NCBI GenBank assembly: GCA_041657425.1
Contig: JBBABY010000005.1
Coordinates: forward strand, 30,001-62,000
Source of the DNA: an archaeon
GTDB taxonomy: Archaea; Iainarchaeota; Iainarchaeia; Iainarchaeales; CSSED10-239
Direction: 5' to 3'
DNA: 32,000 nt
Shown here: one piece after another, positions 1 through 10,500 of the stretch
Layout of the letters: each line of letters begins with the position of its first letter
Numbering within the stretch: position 1 is the stretch's first letter
The notes under the pieces: model-generated
Told to the model about the DNA's origin: nothing
Database searches by the model: none
Seen by the model: the letters and a program-made list of their open reading frames with translations, nothing else
Made by a program: the position numbers and the translations under genes

Positions 1-920
1 AAACAAATATAGTGATATTCTGAATTTTTCAGTAATTTCTTTCCAACGACAAGAGTTCCTTTTTCTTTTTTTTGAGTTGTAATTTTACCAACTCTGTAAT
101 TAAGTGTCTGTAATAATAATCTTAATCTTAAGATTAATTCTTTACTTGCAGACACATATCTACAACTATCTTTTTTCTTTTTATGAATATACCCGTCAGA
201 TAACAACAACCCTTCAATAAATGCTTCTTTTTGCTCATCTGGAATCGTATAAACCCAAGAAGGAATTATTTTATTCTTTGCACCTTTGTTAAATCCAAGG
301 GATTCAATAAATTTAGTTATGTTAACTGAATTCATATAGATGTAAGTTTTATCAGTAGTAATTGTCTTAAATCCAAATACTTTTTTACAAGTAGTTATAC
401 ATTTTTCTCTACCCTCTGTTCCTTCAGGTAAGGCAAAACCTATTTCTCCTTTATCTCTAATCCAACCATCTCCAAGATAAAGTCCTAAGAATAACATTAA
501 ATCTGTTGTTGATTTTTCTGGTATTTTTACATCATTAATTACATTTACTTTATAATCGCCTTTCTTTGAAAGTTGTATTTTTTCAAAAGTAAACGGTTTA
601 TTTCCTTTTAATTTCTTTAATGTAATTATTTGATCTCCTTTTTTTAATTCTTCAAGTGTTTTCCAAATTAAAGTGTTTGGTTTTCCTCTTGGAAGTTTAT
701 TAACAACTAAGAATGGGTGATTTCCTGTTGCTTTGATGTTATGATGAAAAGTTTCAATTTCATAAACTTTCTTAACTCCATTATCAAACACACCACTGCA
801 TTTTTTCAGAACCAATTTGTGTGTTTTTTGATCAAATGCATAAACCATTTCTCCAACTTTAATTTCAGTTATTTTTTTAAGTCCGGTTTCTGTGTAAATT
901 AATGAGTCTTTACTTAAGCA
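1..920 (-). mobile_element. Intein (Hint domain plus LAGLIDADG homing endonuclease) inserted in PorB; partial, C-terminal splice junction off-window
   Basis: Right after ...NEGYMN the sequence reads CLSKDSLIYTETGLKKITEIKVGEMVYAFD (block A, Cys1 codon 920..918). It continues with IKATGNHPFLV (block B TxxH) and two LAGLIDADG motifs, LGLYLGDGWI and AFIEGLLLSDGYI. The canonical PorB continuation (T/S-G-x-Q) is missing, so the C-extein must lie beyond position 1. Confidence 0.85.
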
Positions 921-1343
921 ATTCATGTACCCTTCATTCGAATAACAAAGATAAACAAAATCATGTCCTCTTTCTAGTGCTCCAGATAAACTTTGAAGAC
1001 CAATATCAAAACTTCCACCATCTCCAGCAATTACTAAAAAATTAATGTCTTTTTTTATTTTTCCTTTTTTCTTTTGTGCTCTGTATGCACTTTCAACTCC
1101 AGAAATTGTTGCGGCAGAGTTTGCAAAAAGAGAATGTATCCAAGGAATATTCCATGCAGTCTGTGGATAAACTGTTGTTGTAACTTCTGCACAAGAAGTT
1201 GCGCTGCTTGCAACAACTGGTTTGTCGCTTGCCGCAATCACAGTCTTACAAATAATTGCAATGGGGCACCCTGCACAAGTTCTGTATCCTGGAACCATTG
1301 CTTTACTTTCAGCTAATTTAATAGCAAGTTCTTTTGAGTTCAT
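1..1343 (-). CDS. porB: Pyruvate/2-oxoacid:ferredoxin oxidoreductase beta subunit (PorB), 5' part; interrupted by an intein; ORF runs off the left window edge
   Basis: Hand translation from ATG 1343..1341 gives MNSKELAIKLAESKAMVPGYRTCAGCPIAI...NFLVIAGDGGSFDIGLQSLSGALERGHDFVYLCYSNEGYMN. This is the PorB TPP-binding GDG-x26-N..YMN region. The frame stays open to position 1. It is absent from the supplied ORF track because no stop lies in the window. It sits at the end of the porD-porA gene string. Confidence 0.9.
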   Translation of the reverse strand, partial: MNSKELAIKLAESKAMVPGYRTCAGCPIAIICKTVIAASDKPVVASSATSCAEVTTTVYPQTAWNIPWIHSLFANSAATISGVESAYRAQKKKGKIKKDINFLVIAGDGGSFDIGLQSLSGALERGHDFVYLCYSNEGYMNCLSKDSLIYTETGLKKITEIKVGEMVYAFDQKTHKLVLKKCSGVFDNGVKKVYEIETFHHNIKATGNHPFLVVNKLPRGKPNTLIWKTLEELKKGDQIITLKKLKGNKPFTFEKIQLSKKGDYKVNVINDVKIPEKSTTDLMLFLGLYLGDGWIRDKGEIGFALPEGTEGREKCITTCKKVFGFKTITTDKTYIYMNSVNITKFIESLGFNKGAKNKIIPSWVYTIPDEQKEAFIEGLLLSDGYIHKKKKDSCRYVSASKELILRLRLLLQTLNYRVGKITTQKKEKGTLVVGKKLLKNSEYHYIC

Positions 1344-1346
1344 GTT

Positions 1347-2507
1347 TTATTCCTTTTCTTTTTCAAATCTGTGTTTTTTATAATTATCAACCATCGCTAA
1401 AATTAAATCTCTAAATGCTGGATTTTTTATAACATCGTTATTATTAGGATATGCAGATTCTTTCTGTCTGCCTTTAGAGGGGTTAAATAAAATTGCATCA
1501 ATTTTATTTTCCCCGTCTAATTTTAATGTGCTAGGTAATTGCTTTGTTCCATCACGCATGCTCCAATCATAACCTATAAGTTTTGAATTTATGTTACTAT
1601 CAGATAATACTCGACGAATCGGATATTGCATATATGTCCAATCATCGGATCTTGCAGCTGAAGAATATCCAACAAATGATGCTGGCATTTTCTTACTATC
1701 ACTAGCATCTACAAATATAAAAACTGGATCTTTATATTCTTGTTTATAATTATTGATAAATTTCATAAACGTATTAACAATTATTCTTGTTTTTGTTCCA
1801 TCTCCAACTTCTCCATATCTTCGATCAGGATTACTTGAAGGATATTTAAATTTATCTACAATTACTTTTTTACCATCTGGTTTAATTGACCAAGTATAAG
1901 GCACACCAGTACTTGCAATACCTACCACAACTATTGGTCTTTTTGTAAGTTTTGAAATTCTATTTACAAAAAATTCAGTAATTAAAATCTCTTTTCTAAA
2001 GGAGTTCATAAATTCAAAATCAGAAAAGTGCAATTTATATTTGTAAAACACTTCTTCTATTTCTTTTTCTAGTTCGTAACCATCTTTAATTTTTCCTGCT
2101 CTCACTTTTTCAAATAAAATATTAAGATCTTTTAGTATTGGAGAATTCACTTGATTAATAGAATTTATATTTAAGTCTGAAATCTGGGATAATATTTCAT
2201 TAAAATATACTTTCTCTCTTAATAATTGTTCTATTCCTAACTTTTCTAAACTTGTAAATACTTTGTTTTCCATATCGCTATACTTGGACGACTGCCAATA
2301 GTACCGGCTATTTAATATACGTCTAACTTCTTCTCTAAGGCGATGTATGCCAATTTTGTTATTCCTTATTTTTTCAAACAATTCGTTTAAATCCTTTAAT
2401 ATTGGACGCCCTTTTAGTTCTGCAGGATTTATTTTTGAATGTGTAATAGATAGTAATAATTCATTAAATTTGTGAGGCCCATCAGGTTTACGATTTAATT
2501 TAGGCAT
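1347..2507 (-). CDS. Hypothetical protein (386 aa, Cys-free) located between porA and porB
   Basis: Long ORF, same strand, 21 nt downstream of the porA stop; its own stop is 3 nt before the porB ATG. It has an internal duplication (RPILKDLNELFEKIRNNKIG / SPILKDLNILFEKVRAGKIKDG). The C-terminal globular part has hydrophobic strands VVVGIASTG and VFIFVDASDS. No family recognised. Confidence 0.6.
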   Translation of the reverse strand: MPKLNRKPDGPHKFNELLLSITHSKINPAELKGRPILKDLNELFEKIRNNKIGIHRLREEVRRILNSRYYWQSSKYSDMENKVFTSLEKLGIEQLLREKVYFNEILSQISDLNINSINQVNSPILKDLNILFEKVRAGKIKDGYELEKEIEEVFYKYKLHFSDFEFMNSFRKEILITEFFVNRISKLTKRPIVVVGIASTGVPYTWSIKPDGKKVIVDKFKYPSSNPDRRYGEVGDGTKTRIIVNTFMKFINNYKQEYKDPVFIFVDASDSKKMPASFVGYSSAARSDDWTYMQYPIRRVLSDSNINSKLIGYDWSMRDGTKQLPSTLKLDGENKIDAILFNPSKGRQKESAYPNNNDVIKNPAFRDLILAMVDNYKKHRFEKEKE

Positions 2508-2528: not shown

Positions 2529-3689
2529 TTATTCCTTAATTCCAATATATCTGCTTTTTAGTTTCTTTCCTGCAATTACAGAAACTAAAAGTTCTTCAAT
2601 ATCTTTTTGATAAATGTCTCTTCCACCAAGTCCAAAGACTAAGGACATTACTTCTGGTTTATTTGTTGTATTCATTACTGTTAAACAAATATCTTTGTAA
2701 AGAGGAGGATAACTTCCTGGCCCTTCAGTTCTTTCAAGAACAATTATTTTTTTTGCTTTCTTTAAAGCTTTTGAATATTCTTCATAAAGGAATGGTCTGA
2801 ATAATATTGGTCGCAAAAGACCAACAGATTTTCCTTCTTTTCTTAATTTATCAATAACATCTTTTGAGCTTTCTGCTGTTGAACTTAATACAATAAGAAC
2901 TGTTTCTGAAGAACTTGCAAAATAATCTTCATAAAAATTAATTTCTTTTCCAAAATTATTTTTAAATTCTTTAGAAATTTTTGAATAGTTGTCTTTAACT
3001 TCCAAAAAAGCATCAAACATTTGTTTTCTTATTTCCATGTAACTGTCAGGTAAAGCAAGAGCACCAATAGTTATTGGGTGATCAGTGTCAAGAAGATTAT
3101 ATTTAGGTTTAAATTCTCCTACAAATTTTTTAACAGTTAAATCATCATAAACATTAATAACTTCCATATTGTGGCTTGTGTAAAATCCATCAATACAAAC
3201 CATGATCGGAAGAGATACTGATTCTGCAAGTTTTAATCCAAATAATGTCATCTCATAAGCTTCCTCGGCATTCTCACAATACACTTGCATCCAACCTTGG
3301 TCAATAGCAGACATTGAGTCACTGTGATCACAATGAATGTTAATCGGCGCAGAGATTGCTCTATTAGCCACAGGCATAACTATTGGAAGTCTTAAACCAC
3401 TAGCGACACTAAGTGCTTCATACATGTAAAGTAAACCTTGAGAAGCAGTAGCTGTAACTGCTCTAACACCTGCAGCACTTGCACCAATGGTTGCTGAAAG
3501 AGCAGAGTGTTCAGATTCTGTTCTAATTAATTCAGTGTCAACAAGCCCATTAGCAGAATACTTAGCATAACTTTCAATGATTGGTGTTTGAGGAGTAATT
3601 GGATACATTGCAAATACTTCTGGGTTAATTTGCTTTAATGCATAAGCAATTGCTTCTCCACCACTTAAACCTAATTTTGTTGTTTTCAT
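2529..3689 (-). CDS. porA: Pyruvate:ferredoxin oxidoreductase alpha subunit (PorA)
   Basis: MKTTKLGLSGGEAIAYALKQINPEVFAMYPITPQTPIIE...SEHSALSATIGASAAGVRAVTATASQGLLYMYE is typical of the PorA N-terminal domain. The ATG at 3689 is preferred: it forms an ATGA overlap with the porD stop and has GGTGAAGG upstream. The track ORF extends to 3710. Confidence 0.9.
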   Translation of the reverse strand: MKTTKLGLSGGEAIAYALKQINPEVFAMYPITPQTPIIESYAKYSANGLVDTELIRTESEHSALSATIGASAAGVRAVTATASQGLLYMYEALSVASGLRLPIVMPVANRAISAPINIHCDHSDSMSAIDQGWMQVYCENAEEAYEMTLFGLKLAESVSLPIMVCIDGFYTSHNMEVINVYDDLTVKKFVGEFKPKYNLLDTDHPITIGALALPDSYMEIRKQMFDAFLEVKDNYSKISKEFKNNFGKEINFYEDYFASSSETVLIVLSSTAESSKDVIDKLRKEGKSVGLLRPILFRPFLYEEYSKALKKAKKIIVLERTEGPGSYPPLYKDICLTVMNTTNKPEVMSLVFGLGGRDIYQKDIEELLVSVIAGKKLKSRYIGIKE

Positions 3690-3964
3690 TCCTTCACCAT
3701 CTTTATACATTTAACTGGACAGATTTCAGCACAGATTCCACAGCCTTTACAATAATCCATATTTGTTTCTCCTCTTTTAATGCCAGTTTTATCTTTTTTG
3801 GTTAAGATACAATGTTCAGGGCAAGCATTAAAGCAAAGCATACAGTGTATGCATTTTTTTGAGTCCCACACTGGCTTAACACTTCTCCAAGATCCAGTTT
3901 TGTTAACAAGGGCAGTTCCTCCAGGAAGCACCCCACCAAGATTGTGTTTTTGTTTTTCTGTCAT
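3686..3964 (-). CDS. porD: Pyruvate:ferredoxin oxidoreductase delta subunit (PorD), 2x[4Fe-4S] ferredoxin-like
   Basis: Two CxxCxxCxxxCP motifs (CIHCMLCFNACP, CKGCGICAEICP), size about 90 aa, immediately upstream of porA. ATG at 3964 preferred over GTG at 3973. Confidence 0.9.
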   Translation of the reverse strand: MTEKQKHNLGGVLPGGTALVNKTGSWRSVKPVWDSKKCIHCMLCFNACPEHCILTKKDKTGIKRGETNMDYCKGCGICAEICPVKCIKMVKE

Positions 3965-5839: not shown

Positions 5840-7186
5840 TTGAAAACACTAGAAAAATACTTTAAACCACATACAATTGCAATAATTGGGGCCTCTGATA
5901 AGCAGGCAAGTATAGGTAATACCCTCGCTAAGAACGTAAGCAACTATAAAAGAAAAGTATTTTTTGTAAATCCTAGATTGTCAGGAAAGAAAATATTAAA
6001 TAAACAAGTTTTTGCAAGTATTCTAGAAATCAAAGAAACAATAGATTTAGCAGTTATTGCAGTTCCTGCAGTTGCTGTGATTTCTGTTATTGAAGAAATT
6101 GCAAAAACTAAATGTAAGAACATATTAATGGTGACTTCTGGTTTTTCAGAGATTGGAAGAATCGACATTACTGAGAATATAAAAAAATTAATAACAAAAC
6201 ACAAAATAAATCTAGTGGGTCCAAATTGTTTAGGTTTATTAAATCTAGAAAATAATTTAGATATTACATTTAATGACAGAAATAAATATGATTTGCCAAA
6301 AGTAGGAAGAACATCAATAATTTCTCAGTCAGGCGCTCTTGGTCTTGCACTTTTAGATCTCTCAAGTAAAGAGCAATTAGAAATTAATAAGTTTATTTCA
6401 TATGGTAATGCATTAGATGTTGATGAAAGTGATTTATTAGAGTATTTTTATACTGACAAAAGCACAGACCTAATTCTTTGTTACATTGAAGGAGTGCAAA
6501 ACGGGAAGAAGTTCTTTGAAACATTAAAGAAGGTTACAAAGAAAAAGAAAGTTATAATTTTAAAAGGCGGAATCTCAGAGAAAGGAACAACAGCAGTTAA
6601 GAGTCACACCGCAGCAATTGCCGGTTCTTCAAAAGTTTTTTCTACAGCAGTTAAGCAAGCAGGAGCAAAAGAAGTAGATAATATTAGAGATTTATTTAAT
6701 CTTGCAAAGTTTTATTCTTGGTACAAAACAAATAAGATGGAAAATATTCAGATAATAACTAATGGTGGGGGGTTTGGCGTAATTACAACAGACCAATTAG
6801 ATTTACAAAAAATAAAGTTGGCAGAAACTACAAAAGAAACAAAAGAAAAAATAAAAAAGATTGTTCCAATCTATGCGACAACCACAAACCCAATTGATTT
6901 AACAGGGGATGCCGATAATGCCAGATTCTGTAAAGTTATTGATATTTGTTTAAAAGACAAAAATGTTTCAGCAATTGCAGTATTAATGCTTTTGCAACTA
7001 CCGAGTATTTCTTCTTCAATTGTTAATGAGATTGCAAGCAGAAAATCAAAAACACACAAATCAATATTTTTAGTATCAGTTGGTGGAAGTAAAACCGATA
7101 AGCAATTAGCAGATTTTGAAAAACAAAAAGTACTATGTTTTAAAGACCCAAAAGATCTTTCAAGGATTTTAAAACAAATTATTTAA
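5840..7186 (+). CDS. Acetate--CoA ligase (ADP-forming) alpha-type subunit / CoA-binding succinyl-CoA-synthetase-like protein
   Basis: HTIAIIGASDKQASIGN (CoA-binding Rossmann), AVIAVPA, GPNCLGL, SQSGALG and TAAIAGS motifs are typical of ACD alpha. TTG start with a GTGA SD-like element 6 nt upstream; no in-frame ATG nearby. Confidence 0.8.
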   Translation: MKTLEKYFKPHTIAIIGASDKQASIGNTLAKNVSNYKRKVFFVNPRLSGKKILNKQVFASILEIKETIDLAVIAVPAVAVISVIEEIAKTKCKNILMVTSGFSEIGRIDITENIKKLITKHKINLVGPNCLGLLNLENNLDITFNDRNKYDLPKVGRTSIISQSGALGLALLDLSSKEQLEINKFISYGNALDVDESDLLEYFYTDKSTDLILCYIEGVQNGKKFFETLKKVTKKKKVIILKGGISEKGTTAVKSHTAAIAGSSKVFSTAVKQAGAKEVDNIRDLFNLAKFYSWYKTNKMENIQIITNGGGFGVITTDQLDLQKIKLAETTKETKEKIKKIVPIYATTTNPIDLTGDADNARFCKVIDICLKDKNVSAIAVLMLLQLPSISSSIVNEIASRKSKTHKSIFLVSVGGSKTDKQLADFEKQKVLCFKDPKDLSRILKQII

Positions 7187-7431
7187 ATTGCTTTTACTTT
7201 TCTTTTTGGACTTTCAGCTTTATCTTTGTGTTTTAATAGTTGGTTAATTTCCAGAAGCAGTTCTTTTTTCTTTAGTCCATACATTTCACAGACATCGCCA
7301 ATTTCTAAATTGTCAATTTCTATTTTTGCCATTGGACAACTTACGCAAGGGACTTTGTGTTTAACTAGTACTTTTTCCATTCCCTTAAGTTTCATTATCT
7401 TTTCTAATTTTGTATGTTCGTCTACTTTCAT
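7183..7431 (-). CDS. Small DUF1858-like (hybrid-cluster-protein-associated redox disulfide type) protein
   Basis: 82 aa with VPCVSCPMAKIEIDNLEIGDVCEMYGL, which resembles the DUF1858 CxxC.../G motif pattern. Last gene of the isc string. Its stop overlaps the ACD stop in a shared TTAA (convergent). Confidence 0.45.
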   Translation of the reverse strand: MKVDEHTKLEKIMKLKGMEKVLVKHKVPCVSCPMAKIEIDNLEIGDVCEMYGLKKKELLLEINQLLKHKDKAESPKRKVKAI

Positions 7432-7445
7432 ATTTTGCCTCCGAT

Positions 7446-9041
7446 TTATTTTTTACAATTTTTTTCTTTATGACAACAGGAGCAGTTATCATTATGTGTT
7501 ATTTCTAATATTTTTCTTCCTTGTTTGGAATAATAATCATTAATTGCTGCTTGAAGTGCATCTGCTGCTAAGTTAGAACAGTGCATTTTAATTGGTGGCA
7601 AGCCGTCAAGAGATTTTGCAACATCTCCTCTAGTTATTTTAAAAGCATCATCTAGAGTTTTACCTTTAGCAAGTTCAGTAACCATAGATGAGGTTGCAAT
7701 TGCTGCTGCACAGCCAAGTGTCTTAAACTTAATATCTTGAATAATTTCTTTTCCGTCTTTGTTTTTTGAAACAGTAATGTATAACCACATTATATCTCCA
7801 CAATTATGAACAGTAAAAGCATTTGTGTTGTAAGAATGCGAAGTATCTATTTCTAAATTATACACTTTGCCGGAATAGTTTTCTGTTTTTTTAAAAGTAA
7901 TGGGGGTATATAAAATGTTTTTATCTATCCAAGAGTTTATTGCTTCTGGTCTTAGATTATAAAAAGTAACTTCAATAATTTTAGCAAGTTTTGTTGTAGA
8001 TTCTTTATCGCCCACGTGTATTCTATAACATTCTTGATGTTTTTGCTCTTTTTTATCTGTTTTTTCTTTTTCTGTATATATTGATGGAATAATTCCTTGT
8101 CTTAATAATAATATTTTAAGTTTATGGACTAATTCCTTAGATATAGTAGAATATCCCCCCCTTGGTATTTTTGTATTAAAGAAACCATCCCCTTTCCAAA
8201 TACCATAAATTAAAGATTTTTGTTTTTCTGGAGGCAATGTCATAAACATATCTGGTATATCTTTATTTTTAGCACCAGATTTAAATAACTCTTTAAATAA
8301 TTTAACTATAAAAACGCTATTTATATAAACTACTTGAGAATGTTGAGTTTCATTTTTTTTAATAATTGGGGTTATTCCAAAAATTTTTTCTGAAATTCTA
8401 ACCACGTCTTGTGCAAGATTATTTTCTTTTAAATTAAAACAAAATGCTATATGCACATTATTTGTTTTATCAAAATAATATCCTTCTGAAAGATAATATC
8501 CTGCTAATCTTAAAAAATCTGAATCTAATTTTATTTTTGAAGGTATTGATTTACTATTGTGATCAAATTTCTTTTTTTTGGTATTTACTTCTAAGTAATC
8601 AACATCTTTTGTATCAGATAGTATTGCATATAAAATTAAGTCGCCTTTATCTAGTTGTTCTGCGTGATACCAGGCCGGAATTAATGTTTTTTTATTTTTC
8701 GTTCTTAAAAATTTATCTCCTTTAGGGATTTTTATTGCATAAACAAGATGTTCTTTAGTTAATTTTATTTCTCCTAGTCTGTTTTTTAGAACAATAATTG
8801 GTTCAGAAATAACTCTTTTGTAAGTTTCAGTAACTGAATGATACTTCCCATCATGACTTATAATAAAATCATTTTTTTTTATATCTTTAATTTTTTTTAG
8901 TTTTAAATTAGTGTGTATATTTGTATCTTTAAACAAGCATTTAGGATTTCCTACCTTTCCAACTCCGTCAGCATTTTCAATCTCTCCAAGGTTTTGTGGT
9001 TTTAAGAAATTTTCCATAACTTTTTTTGAATAGTTTTCCAT
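7446..9041 (-). CDS. iscU: Fe-S cluster assembly scaffold IscU/NifU-like, interrupted by an intein (exteins 34 + 118 aa)
   Basis: N-extein MENYSKKVMENFLKPQNLGEIENADGVGKVGNPK. C-extein CGDIMWLYITV...KFKTLGCAAAIATSSMVTELAKGKTL...LPPIKMHCSNLAADALQAAINDY. Together these contain all three IscU Cys ligand motifs, plus a C-terminal Cys/Lys-rich tail NCSCCHKEKNCKK. Confidence 0.9.
   Translation of the reverse strand: MENYSKKVMENFLKPQNLGEIENADGVGKVGNPKCLFKDTNIHTNLKLKKIKDIKKNDFIISHDGKYHSVTETYKRVISEPIIVLKNRLGEIKLTKEHLVYAIKIPKGDKFLRTKNKKTLIPAWYHAEQLDKGDLILYAILSDTKDVDYLEVNTKKKKFDHNSKSIPSKIKLDSDFLRLAGYYLSEGYYFDKTNNVHIAFCFNLKENNLAQDVVRISEKIFGITPIIKKNETQHSQVVYINSVFIVKLFKELFKSGAKNKDIPDMFMTLPPEKQKSLIYGIWKGDGFFNTKIPRGGYSTISKELVHKLKILLLRQGIIPSIYTEKEKTDKKEQKHQECYRIHVGDKESTTKLAKIIEVTFYNLRPEAINSWIDKNILYTPITFKKTENYSGKVYNLEIDTSHSYNTNAFTVHNCGDIMWLYITVSKNKDGKEIIQDIKFKTLGCAAAIATSSMVTELAKGKTLDDAFKITRGDVAKSLDGLPPIKMHCSNLAADALQAAINDYYSKQGRKILEITHNDNCSCCHKEKNCKK
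7803..8939 (-). mobile_element. Complete 379-aa intein with LAGLIDADG homing-endonuclease domain inside IscU
   Basis: Starts CLFKDTNIHT (Cys1 codon 8939..8937). Block B is LTKEHLVY. LAGLIDADG motifs are LAGYYLSEGYY and LIYGIWKGDGFF. Block F is VYNLEIDTSHSY and block G is AFTVHN, followed by the +1 Cys (codon 7802..7800) of the CGD motif. Confidence 0.9.
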
Positions 9042-9052
9042 AATCTTTTCAC

Positions 9053-10195
9053 CTAATATTTATAAGGACACATTTCTCTTAATTTTTTAATTGTGTCTTT
9101 AACAGTGTCAACAGTATATTTAATTTCTTCTTTAGTATTATCAATTCCTACAGAGAATCTAACAGTTCCATGAGTTTGTTCTTGTTTTAATCCTATTGCT
9201 CTTAAAACATGACTTGGTTCAAGAGTATTAGATGAACAAGCAGAACCAGTTGAAACTGAAATTCCTGCAGCATCAAGATACAAAAGTATTGCTTCTCCTT
9301 CTGCATACATGAAACTCAAATTAGCATTATTACATAGCCTTTTATCTTTTGAACCATTCAACCAAGACTCTTCAACATCTGATAATCCTTTAATCAATTG
9401 ATTTCTAAGATTAGTCATATGTTCAATTTCTTTTTCTCCAATGATGTCGGTTGCTTTAGAAAAACCAATTATTCCAGGAACATTAACAGTTCCGCTTCTT
9501 AAATTATATTCGTGTCCTCCACCATGAAGAAGCGGTTCTAATTTTATTCCTTCTTTAATAAATAATCCTCCAACACCTTTAGGTCCATAAATCTTATGAG
9601 CATTAATTGTTAAAAGATCAATATTGTCTTTCTCAAGGTTAATTGGAGCTTTTGTAAAACTTTGACAAGCATCTGAATGGAAAAGAGTTTCTTTTTCATG
9701 GCAAATTTTTCCAATCTCTCTTAAGTCTTGAATAGTTCCAATCTCGTTATTTCCATGAATTACAGAAACTACAAGTGTGTCTTTTTTAATTGCCTTTTCA
9801 AGTTGGGAAAGATTAACAAAACCTTCTTTATCAACATCAAGATATGTTACAGAATATCCTTTTCTTTCAAGAAACTTATAAACATTAAGAATACTATCGT
9901 GTTCAATCTTTGTTGTAATAATGTGTTTCTTATTTTTGTTATTTTCTGCTAGCCCCTTAATTGCAAAATTATTACTTTCTGTTCCTCCAGAAGTAAAGAT
10001 TAGTTTGTGATTTTTGCTATTGGCCTTCTTTGAAATGTGCTCTCTTGCTTTATCTAGTTCTGCTTTAGCTTCGCGACCAATTGTGTGAAGACTAGAGGAA
10101 TTTCCGAAGTATTTTTCTTCTGCGTCAGTTATTGCTTTCATAACAGATGAATGCATCTTTGTTGTTGCTGCATTATCTAAATAAATTGATTTCAT
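9053..10195 (-). CDS. iscS: Cysteine desulfurase (IscS/NifS class)
   Basis: YLDNAATT, SGGTESNN, the PLP-lysine motif INAHKIYGPKGVGGL, the active-site loop STGSACSS and RFSVG are all canonical. Confidence 0.92.
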   Translation of the reverse strand: MKSIYLDNAATTKMHSSVMKAITDAEEKYFGNSSSLHTIGREAKAELDKAREHISKKANSKNHKLIFTSGGTESNNFAIKGLAENNKNKKHIITTKIEHDSILNVYKFLERKGYSVTYLDVDKEGFVNLSQLEKAIKKDTLVVSVIHGNNEIGTIQDLREIGKICHEKETLFHSDACQSFTKAPINLEKDNIDLLTINAHKIYGPKGVGGLFIKEGIKLEPLLHGGGHEYNLRSGTVNVPGIIGFSKATDIIGEKEIEHMTNLRNQLIKGLSDVEESWLNGSKDKRLCNNANLSFMYAEGEAILLYLDAAGISVSTGSACSSNTLEPSHVLRAIGLKQEQTHGTVRFSVGIDNTKEEIKYTVDTVKDTIKKLREMCPYKY

Positions 10196-10500
10196 TTCTT
10201 TTCCTCTTTTTTACAGCATTTATTTTTACAAAAATCTTTTGTGTGTTGATTAACGATCTTAACAAGTGGTTTAATTGTTTTCTTGTTTAAGGAATAAATA
10301 ATGTTCTTTCCTTGTCTTTTAGAAAAAACAATATTGCAATTAAGAAGTTGTTTTAAACTATGGCTAACCTTTGATTGTTCTTCTCCAGTAATTGTACTTA
10401 TTTCAGAAACTGTTTTTTCAGACTTATAAAGTAGCTTAATTATTTTCCATCTCGTCTTGTTGGAAATAACTCCAAAGAAATTATATGATAAACATTTCAT
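10192..10500 (-). CDS. ArsR/SmtB-family winged-HTH transcriptional regulator with Cys-rich C-terminus
   Basis: ISNKTRWKIIKLLYKSEKTVSEISTITGEEQSKVSHSLKQLLNCNIVFSKRQGKNIIYSLN is a typical ArsR HTH. The tail is DFCKNKCCKKEEKK. A 4-nt overlap with the iscS start implies an operon. Confidence 0.8.
   Translation of the reverse strand: MKCLSYNFFGVISNKTRWKIIKLLYKSEKTVSEISTITGEEQSKVSHSLKQLLNCNIVFSKRQGKNIIYSLNKKTIKPLVKIVNQHTKDFCKNKCCKKEEKK

Follow-up and report, generated by a model that had tools for sequence, protein, structure and literature searches.

The intein of Mycobacterium tuberculosis SufB is the only intein in an iron-sulfur (Fe-S) cluster assembly protein that turned up in the literature. 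Passages of two reports describe its splicing as required for the assembly machinery to be active and as sensitive to oxidative and nitrosative stress (PMC4547236, PMC8891592). Here, an insertion in a second Fe-S assembly protein, the scaffold IscU/NifU, is described from a 32,000-nucleotide (nt) stretch of an archaeal contig assigned to the Iainarchaeota (GenBank assembly GCA_041657425.1, contig JBBABY010000005.1, positions 30,001 to 62,000), hereafter referred to as the window. With a probability of about 0.9, the 379-amino-acid (aa) element lying between Lys34 and the first cluster-ligand Cys of this nifU/iscU product belongs to the canonical class-1 inteins, carries a two-motif LAGLIDADG homing endonuclease, and would be capable of both splicing and homing. 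The argument draws on the anatomy, fold, and conservation of the element, on empty alleles, and on polymorphism between populations, all of which were observed directly and from which splicing and DNA cleavage are predicted.

The nifU/iscU precursor gene occupies positions 7446 to 9041 of the window on the minus strand, as do all of its parts given below. It was recognized from the list of open reading frames (ORFs) and from the Pfam domains NifU_N, LAGLIDADG_3, and Intein_splicing; including the stop codon, it encodes a precursor of 531 aa (60.8 kDa), whose reading frame is unbroken throughout. The N-extein (aa 1 to 34; 8940 to 9041) ends in GKVGNPK and aligns with positions 1 to 30 of the IscU profile and with Protein Data Bank (PDB) entry 7c8m. 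The intein (aa 35 to 413; 7803 to 8939; 1,137 nt, 44.1 kDa) extends from CLFKD to TVHN, with a LAGLIDADG endonuclease domain interrupting its Hint splicing domain. The C-extein (aa 414 to 531; 7449 to 7802) begins with CGDIMWLYI and carries the ligand Cys444 (7710 to 7712) and the pair His487-Cys488 (7578 to 7583). The spliced product computed from the two exteins has 34 + 118 = 152 aa and a mass of 16.7 kDa, with the motif GNPKCGD intact. An original prediction, made from the letters of the window, had described a 531-aa IscU ORF with a 379-aa insert at 7803 to 8939, the same extein ends and insert start, a block B with LTKEH, two LAGLIDADG motifs retaining their acidic residues, a block F, and a terminal TVHN; the coordinates re-derived from the sequence all agree with it, and every motif was located where it had been placed.

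Conservation was assessed in an alignment of the window protein and 120 database homologues (121 sequences, mean identity of 51%). Cys1 (C35; 8937 to 8939), the predicted first splicing nucleophile in block A, is invariant, as are T95 and H98 of the TxxH motif in block B (IKLTKEHLVYA; 8736 to 8768). In block F (VYNLEIDTSHSY; 7830 to 7865), residues V393, N395, L396, E397, and S403 are each conserved in at least 90% of the sequences. Block G (TVHN; 7803 to 7814), which is matched by the model TIGR01443 intein_Cterm, contributes the invariant penultimate His412 and terminal Asn413. The next codon (7800 to 7802) encodes Cys+1 (C414), predicted to serve both as the second nucleophile of splicing and, within the CGD motif, as the first Cys ligand of the Fe-S cluster; C414, G415, and D416 are also invariant, and C414 aligns with Cys38 of 7c8m. 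The junction HN/CGD (the slash marking the splice point) was present in all 120 database homologues, and the intein length varied only from 377 to 382 aa across the alignment. The endonuclease domain spans approximately aa 170 to 360 (7962 to 8534, with approximate boundaries), as delimited by two stretches of LAGLIDADG_3, by Hom_end, and by Foldseek. Its first motif, LRLAGYYLSEGY (8478 to 8513), holds the predicted catalytic residue E186 and the invariant residues L177 and G181, and its second, LIYGIWKGDGF (8181 to 8213), holds the predicted catalytic residue D285 and the invariant residues W282, G284, and G286. Both acidic residues are retained in at least 90% of the 121 sequences.

Profile searches matched the insert to LAGLIDADG_3 in two stretches (Pfam; E = 1e-13, 51.8 bits against a cut-off of 22.5), to Hom_end (Pfam; E = 2.5e-4, 21.6 bits, narrowly over the cut-off of 21.1), and to TIGR01443 intein_Cterm (16.4 bits, narrowly over the cut-off of 15.6), with additional partial matches to the NCBI models of intein-containing Tes, PolII, RpoA'', IF2, GyrA, and RecA. 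The nearest solved proteins by sequence are the VMA inteins 7qss and 7qsu (E = 6.9e-7) and PI-PkoII. An AlphaFold2 model of the whole precursor, built with the 121-sequence alignment, reached a mean predicted local distance difference test score (pLDDT) of 90.1 and a predicted template modeling score (pTM) of 0.81. The best Foldseek match of the model was the TliVMA intein (7qsu; E = 5e-24, template modeling [TM] score of 0.76 normalized to the target), followed by PI-SceI, PhoVMA, PI-PfuI, and PI-PkoII, with the matches to TliVMA, PI-SceI, and PI-PfuI ranging from E = 5e-24 to 4e-16. The endonuclease domain superposed on I-DmoI with TM scores of 0.71 to 0.75 and also matched the endonuclease domains of PI-SceI and PI-PfuI; in the model it has the pseudo-dimeric alpha-beta-beta-alpha-beta-beta-alpha fold of this family. 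Judged by its sequence and modeled fold, the insert thus has all the features of a class-1 intein with a two-motif LAGLIDADG endonuclease. A bacterial intein-like or Hedgehog-type Hint domain was considered and rejected because the junction is HN + Cys+1, a LAGLIDADG endonuclease is nested in the insert, and the exteins are contiguous.

The host protein is a scaffold of the IscU/NifU type. In the precursor, NifU_N is matched in two separate stretches (Pfam; E = 2e-39), whereas the spliced 152-aa sequence aligns with positions 1 to 120 of the 121 positions of TIGR03419 NifU_clost as a single stretch (E = 3e-55); such scores, with that of LAGLIDADG_3, are well outside what chance would give. The score of 185.8 bits lies just under the equivalog cut-off of 187.9, and the match to TIGR01999 iscU, covering positions 1 to 123 of 124, scores 132.5 bits against a cut-off of 192.4; on these profile scores, the assignment stops at the IscU/NifU type. 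The best match of the spliced protein among solved structures is 7c8m (E = 1.5e-51), an archaeal IscU listed in the PDB as "Nitrogen-fixing NifU domain protein," and the alignment runs without a gap across the junction (gkvgnpkCGDimw in the spliced protein and gkvgnpvCGDlme in 7c8m). These results bear out the earlier view that the joined exteins form one contiguous IscU. Residues C35, D37, and H108 of the spliced protein correspond to residues 38, 40, and 106 of the 7c8m chain, a register that fits the variant name "D40A/H106A" given by the depositors and therefore indicates that the +1 Cys is the first cluster-ligand Cys, in accordance with the original prediction, which had put the +1 nucleophile at the Fe-S ligand of the NPxCGD motif. 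Through the motif G-x-P-x-C-G-D, this residue is presumably equivalent to Cys37 of the Escherichia coli protein. C414, D416, C444, H487, and C488 are all invariant in the 121 sequences and align with the ligands of 7c8m and 4eb5. The C-extein of the model superposes on Archaeoglobus fulgidus IscU (4eb5_C) and on Methanothrix IscU at 1.3 to 1.8 Å, with 1.3 Å for 4eb5_C.

The allele is not confined to the window. With the full-length precursor as the query, at least 869 protein clusters matched at E ≤ 1e-5 among the candidates scored, and the architecture was identical in all of the best 120 matches. The carriers come from independent assemblies (JGI, ENA, NCBI, and Logan), and an identical protein is encoded on an independent ENA contig of 16.7 kb. 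Source names of carriers include "archaeon BMS3Abin17," "Candidatus Pacearchaeota archaeon," and Woesearchaeota (L003), and the named carriers, few as these source names are, belong mostly to DPANN-type archaea. Other carrier bins are labeled Parcubacteria, Methanosarcinales, and Thermoplasmata, all with 30% to 38% GC content. The closest intein-free relative bearing a name is from a "Candidatus Diapherotrites archaeon" (P0132). In a contig scan with extein peptides as patterns, inteins were present at 5 of 80 loci (L001 to L005), and the remainder were mostly intein-free NifU; two loci (L042 and L014) gave long match spans yet are intein-free. With at least 869 clusters, the first-site NifU intein allele is abundant in public metagenomes and metagenome-assembled genomes, unrecognized rather than rare.

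Intein-free NifU proteins of 152 to 161 aa share 94%, 90%, and 86% identity with the spliced extein (P0121 to P0123), and one of them (P0122) is encoded in an operon with the same gene order as in the window, ArsR-nifS-nifU-82aa. Close relatives thus include intein-free iscU genes with an intact NPxCGD motif, which fits the original prediction. The spliced gene of the window and an empty allele (L082) share 89% DNA identity, with precisely 1,137 bp missing from the latter, and intein-plus and intein-minus pairs across the data set reach extein identities of 98%, 97%, 95%, and 94%. The empty alleles at 98%, 97%, and 94% (the last being P0121) lie in this ArsR-nifS-nifU-82aa operon. Junctions were checked by DNA alignment of the spliced gene; MAFFT alignments of mixed intein-plus and intein-minus proteins misplaced the N-exteins of empty alleles. 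The closest comparison is between one intein-plus locus (L084, 4001 to 5605) and two intein-minus loci (L085 and L086, 4001 to 4468), which are fully syntenic and 98.3% to 98.7% identical over approximately 4.1 kb upstream and 4.4 kb downstream. A clean 1,137-bp indel is the single large difference between them. Within the 468-nt gene, 8 of the 11 mismatches fall at nt 89 to 111, no farther than 13 bp from the junction (nt 102), and the residues at the junction read GNPK/CGDV with the intein and GSPL-CGDI without it. Such a cluster at the presumed endonuclease target could be the co-conversion tract expected of homing.

Selection and the evolutionary histories of intein and host were also compared. 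The ratio of nonsynonymous to synonymous substitution rates (dN/dS; Nei-Gojobori method, window versus four relatives) was 0.13 to 0.20 for the endonuclease domain, 0.14 to 0.24 for the Hint domain, and 0.09 to 0.17 for the exteins, which indicates that the endonuclease is under purifying selection. Pairwise identities of inteins and of their exteins, the latter only about 130 to 150 aa long, were weakly correlated (r = 0.21, 7,260 pairs), and the discordance ran both ways, with inteins 74% to 80% identical in hosts whose exteins shared 48% to 59%, and exteins 97% to 98% identical around inteins sharing 52% to 55%. Taken together, the sequence comparisons point to an intein that is homing now or was doing so until very recently.

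The first ligand Cys is not the only point of insertion in this protein. In a locus of Omnitrophica bacterium CG02 (L005, 889 to 2364; PEUD01000100.1), the first site is intact (NSICGD), and a different full-length LAGLIDADG intein stands just before the second ligand Cys (KTFG/CLPPQ...VHN/CGAAIATSS). This second-site allele was present in 116 of the 120 best matches to the L005 protein (P0241 to P0360); in 13 of the 120, no contiguous first-site motif is present. Five long proteins of 624 to 649 aa that were read (P0287, P0308, P0313, P0320, and P0321) are double-intein NifU, with a mini-intein of approximately 155 aa at the first ligand Cys and a full-length intein at the second. Both Hint halves of the window intein, N- and C-terminal, align with the mini-intein (E = 8e-11 and 6e-7, respectively), which is missing the endonuclease domain and is therefore an endonuclease-less occupant of the first site. 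On sequence evidence, inteins interrupt IscU/NifU at two points or more, each with a cluster-ligand Cys as the predicted +1 nucleophile. At the third-ligand site (MHC/S), none of the 240 intein-containing sequences inspected shows an intein, and none of them came from a search aimed there.

Under the proposed mechanism, translation would yield a 60.8-kDa precursor whose three-Cys cluster site cannot form while 379 residues lie between the N-extein and the first of the ligand Cys residues. Splicing would begin with an N-S acyl shift at Cys35, helped by T95 and H98, and proceed through trans-thioesterification onto Cys414, cyclization of Asn413, helped by His412, and an S-N shift to a peptide bond. 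The products would be the 16.7-kDa scaffold with its GNPKCGD motif and a free 44.1-kDa intein. The latter would act as a homing endonuclease that cuts intein-free nifU at the DNA encoding GNPxCGD, and repair would copy the intein and a few flanking bases into the cut allele. Following the usual logic of intein placement, an invariant ligand codon would be a favorable site because the target is barred from drifting and a deletion that missed its exact ends would kill the cell.

Several points weigh against this reading. Intein_splicing was matched at E = 1.2e-7 with 32.2 bits, under its gathering score of 35.8, so that of the Hint and LAGLIDADG profiles named in the original prediction, the splicing profile stayed below threshold, whereas LAGLIDADG_3, Hom_end, TIGR01443, and the fold gave the expected matches; the structural match and the conservation among homologues compensate for the weak Intein_splicing, TIGR01443, and Hom_end scores. 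Splicing and DNA cleavage are predictions from sequence and model. The cluster of mismatches at the junction could equally reflect an endonuclease-resistant empty allele or a relaxed or changed constraint at the -1 and +4 residues, and the shortness of the exteins makes the discordance between intein and extein noisy. The labels Parcubacteria, Methanosarcinales, and Thermoplasmata may result from mis-binning, which leaves the host range uncertain. If the insert were no functional intein at all, being an assembly chimera, a pseudogene, or a non-splicing insertion in a cell whose Fe-S clusters are assembled by another system, the single scaffold gene seen in the window and a splicing function known here from sequence and model would be in keeping with it. 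Such an explanation is very improbable, given the same architecture in at least 869 clusters from independent assemblies, the identical protein on the 16.7-kb ENA contig, the unbroken reading frame, the invariance of all splicing residues, and the strong purifying selection on the exteins (dN/dS of 0.09 to 0.17); recurrence, invariant residues, and extein selection together led to its rejection.

Loss of mobility deserves more weight. Degenerate endonucleases are common among natural inteins, and the Omnitrophica mini-inteins indicate that the endonuclease does get lost in this lineage at the first site, so the window intein could be a relic that still splices, carries a dead endonuclease, and is inherited only vertically, the empty alleles being old precise losses. 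This is unlikely in view of the retention of E186 and D285, the dN/dS of 0.13 to 0.20 in the endonuclease domain, the uniform length of 377 to 382 aa without decay, the presence/absence polymorphism between loci whose flanks are approximately 98.5% identical and whose substitutions cluster around the insertion point, and the inteins that are far more alike (74% to 80%) than their exteins (48% to 59%). A regulatory role concerns persistence rather than mobility. Disulfide formation or metal binding at the junction Cys residues could tie splicing to redox or to iron or zinc status, and the intein would then persist through benefit and not through homing alone. The invariance of both Cys1 and Cys+1, a host that serves as an Fe-S scaffold and whose gene neighbors code for an ArsR-type regulator and a CxxC redox-disulfide-like protein, and the maintenance of the allele across hundreds of lineages are compatible with this idea, and in M. 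tuberculosis, the SufB intein has been presented as sensing oxidative and nitrosative stress (PMC4547236). The second ligand Cys serves as an insertion point too, and some alleles carry inteins at both sites. If inteins at the first, second, or both ligand Cys residues were post-translational gates on the maturation of the Fe-S scaffold, which we regard as quite improbable, oxidation of or metal binding by Cys1/Cys+1 would stall splicing, and organisms with a minimal set of regulators would have their supply of new scaffold coupled to redox or metal status. However, intein-free alleles are common in near-identical genomes, which argues that the intein is dispensable, and the purifying selection on the endonuclease and the discordant histories let selfish homing explain its persistence without any benefit. 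Cys1/Cys+1 is, moreover, the most common junction pair in inteins generally. Maintenance by benefit is accordingly doubtful; a regulatory role at the ligand Cys is possible, and nothing observed calls for it, as selfish homing into an invariant codon is enough to account for all the observations.

The scaffold gene belongs to a conserved cluster, all on the minus strand. Its first gene encodes an ArsR-family helix-turn-helix regulator (10192 to 10500; HTH_5, 6.3e-13), which lies upstream of nifS in L083, L084, L085, and L088 as well. A cysteine desulfurase of the NifS/IscS type (9053 to 10195; Aminotran_5, 2e-83; TIGR03402 FeS_nifS, 8.6e-142) follows directly upstream of nifU in the same operon. 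Directly downstream of nifU is the gene for the 82-aa CxxC protein (7183 to 7431), whose sole match is a weak one to TIGR03980, the hybrid-cluster-protein-associated redox disulfide domain (3.8e-6, 26.8 bits, below the cut-off of 44.95). An ORF of 82 to 84 aa occurs at the same position in L081, L083, L084, L085, L087, and L088, with or without the intein, and the order ArsR-nifS-nifU-82aa recurs in related contigs. The window has a GC content of 29% and also encodes RadA, subunits of pyruvate/2-oxoacid:ferredoxin oxidoreductase (POR), and an ADP-forming acyl-CoA synthetase-like protein; its source is probably a DPANN-type archaeon.

A second LAGLIDADG intein is present in the window, in PorB, the beta subunit of POR (3 to 1346, minus strand). 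The intein starts at 920 and runs past the left edge of the window; it is inserted after ...YLCYSNEGYMN in the thiamine pyrophosphate (TPP)-binding region, and its C-terminal junction lies beyond the window. The PorB ORF matches Intein_splicing (38.6 bits, over the gathering score), TPP_enzyme_C, and LAGLIDADG_3 in Pfam and PorB (6.7e-48) and intein_Nterm (33 bits) in NCBIfam. A hidden Markov model built from the NifU inteins matches the PorB intein at E = 3e-23. Between porA (2529 to 3710) and porB (start at 1343) lies a 386-aa ORF (1347 to 2507, minus strand), an unusual occupant of a por operon, with no match in Pfam or NCBIfam.

In the full-text literature, no description of an IscU/NifU intein was found, which is to be read as "not found" and not as "never reported," InBase being outside the scope. 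The main text of Novikova et al. (2016; PMC4760082) makes no mention of NifU or IscU. NCBIfam holds "exception" models for several intein-containing proteins, and none for IscU/NifU appeared. The novelty put forward in the original prediction thus stands insofar as no paper or curated model was found, with the qualification that the allele is represented by at least 869 clusters. The carriers are named "NifU-like," "nifU-like protein," "iron-sulfur cluster assembly scaffold protein," or "hypothetical" in their sources, and none of these names mentions an intein. Some are wrong, such as "2-oxoglutarate ferredoxin oxidoreductase subunit beta" (P0105) and "SufB." The names of P0105, P0304, and P0349 were probably transferred via the intein and not the host domain, that of P0105 probably because related inteins sit in 2-oxoacid:ferredoxin oxidoreductase beta subunits.

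The type of element is ordinary; apparently new are the host protein and site, how abundant the allele is in uncultured lineages, the existence of a second site, and the alleles with two inteins. Surveys of cultured organisms have stressed inteins in replication and repair proteins, and the host range now takes in a core cofactor-assembly scaffold. Along with the inteins of PorB, UDP-glucose dehydrogenase, a methyltransferase, and a flavoprotein reductase, the NifU inteins suggest a wider range of hosts in uncultured DPANN archaea and Omnitrophica. A small protein in which the splicing nucleophile is a metal ligand offers a compact system for asking whether splicing is gated by redox or metals, and the natural intein-plus and intein-minus alleles in near-identical genomes are possible controls. 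The endonuclease may have a new LAGLIDADG specificity for a very conserved target of the 20-bp class and is a possible reagent.

A phmmer search with the intein alone against 1.84 billion representatives returned 5,659 matches at E ≤ 1e-3. The best matches, approximately 10, are NifU first-site alleles. Among the next ten, a Pfam scan found host domains in seven, namely, another NifU, 2-oxoacid:ferredoxin oxidoreductase beta subunits, UDP-glucose dehydrogenase, a methyltransferase, a pyridine-nucleotide disulfide oxidoreductase, and an MptE-like protein; the inteins of these seven share 33% to 36% identity with the window intein along their full length. The nearest relatives outside NifU, including the inteins of the oxidoreductase beta subunit and of UDP-glucose dehydrogenase, share 30% to 38% identity with the window intein over its full 379 aa. 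They occupy other host genes and other sites and are therefore non-allelic. Matches to the NifU intein in 3 to 8 stretches were also seen in proteins of 1,500 to 4,900 aa (P0373, P0382, P0386, P0398, P0406, P0465, and others), which may be multi-intein proteins.

The solved VMA inteins, TliVMA, PhoVMA (7qss, 7qsu, and 7qst), and PI-SceI, resemble the NifU intein in that a two-motif LAGLIDADG endonuclease interrupts the Hint domain, and they share Cys1, the terminal HN, and Cys+1 with it. However, their sequence identity with it is only approximately 20%, and their host site is the P-loop region of an ATPase. PI-SceI (454 aa) has an extra DNA-recognition region that the 379-aa NifU intein is without. 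Among archaeal inteins, those of Pyrococcus abyssi MoaA and PolII are redox trapped by a disulfide between Cys1 and Cys+1. They resemble the NifU case in having Cys at both junctions and a metalloenzyme-related host in an anaerobe, and they are cited here only as a lead to a plausible way in which splicing could be conditional. Another counterpart is the SufB intein of M. tuberculosis, which is likewise full length, uses Cys nucleophiles, and interrupts an essential Fe-S assembly protein. That intein resides in SufB of the SUF complex in actinobacteria, whereas the NifU intein resides in the IscU/NifU scaffold of DPANN-type archaea and Omnitrophica, and, in a further difference from the SufB case, the +1 nucleophile of the NifU intein is itself a ligand of the cluster.

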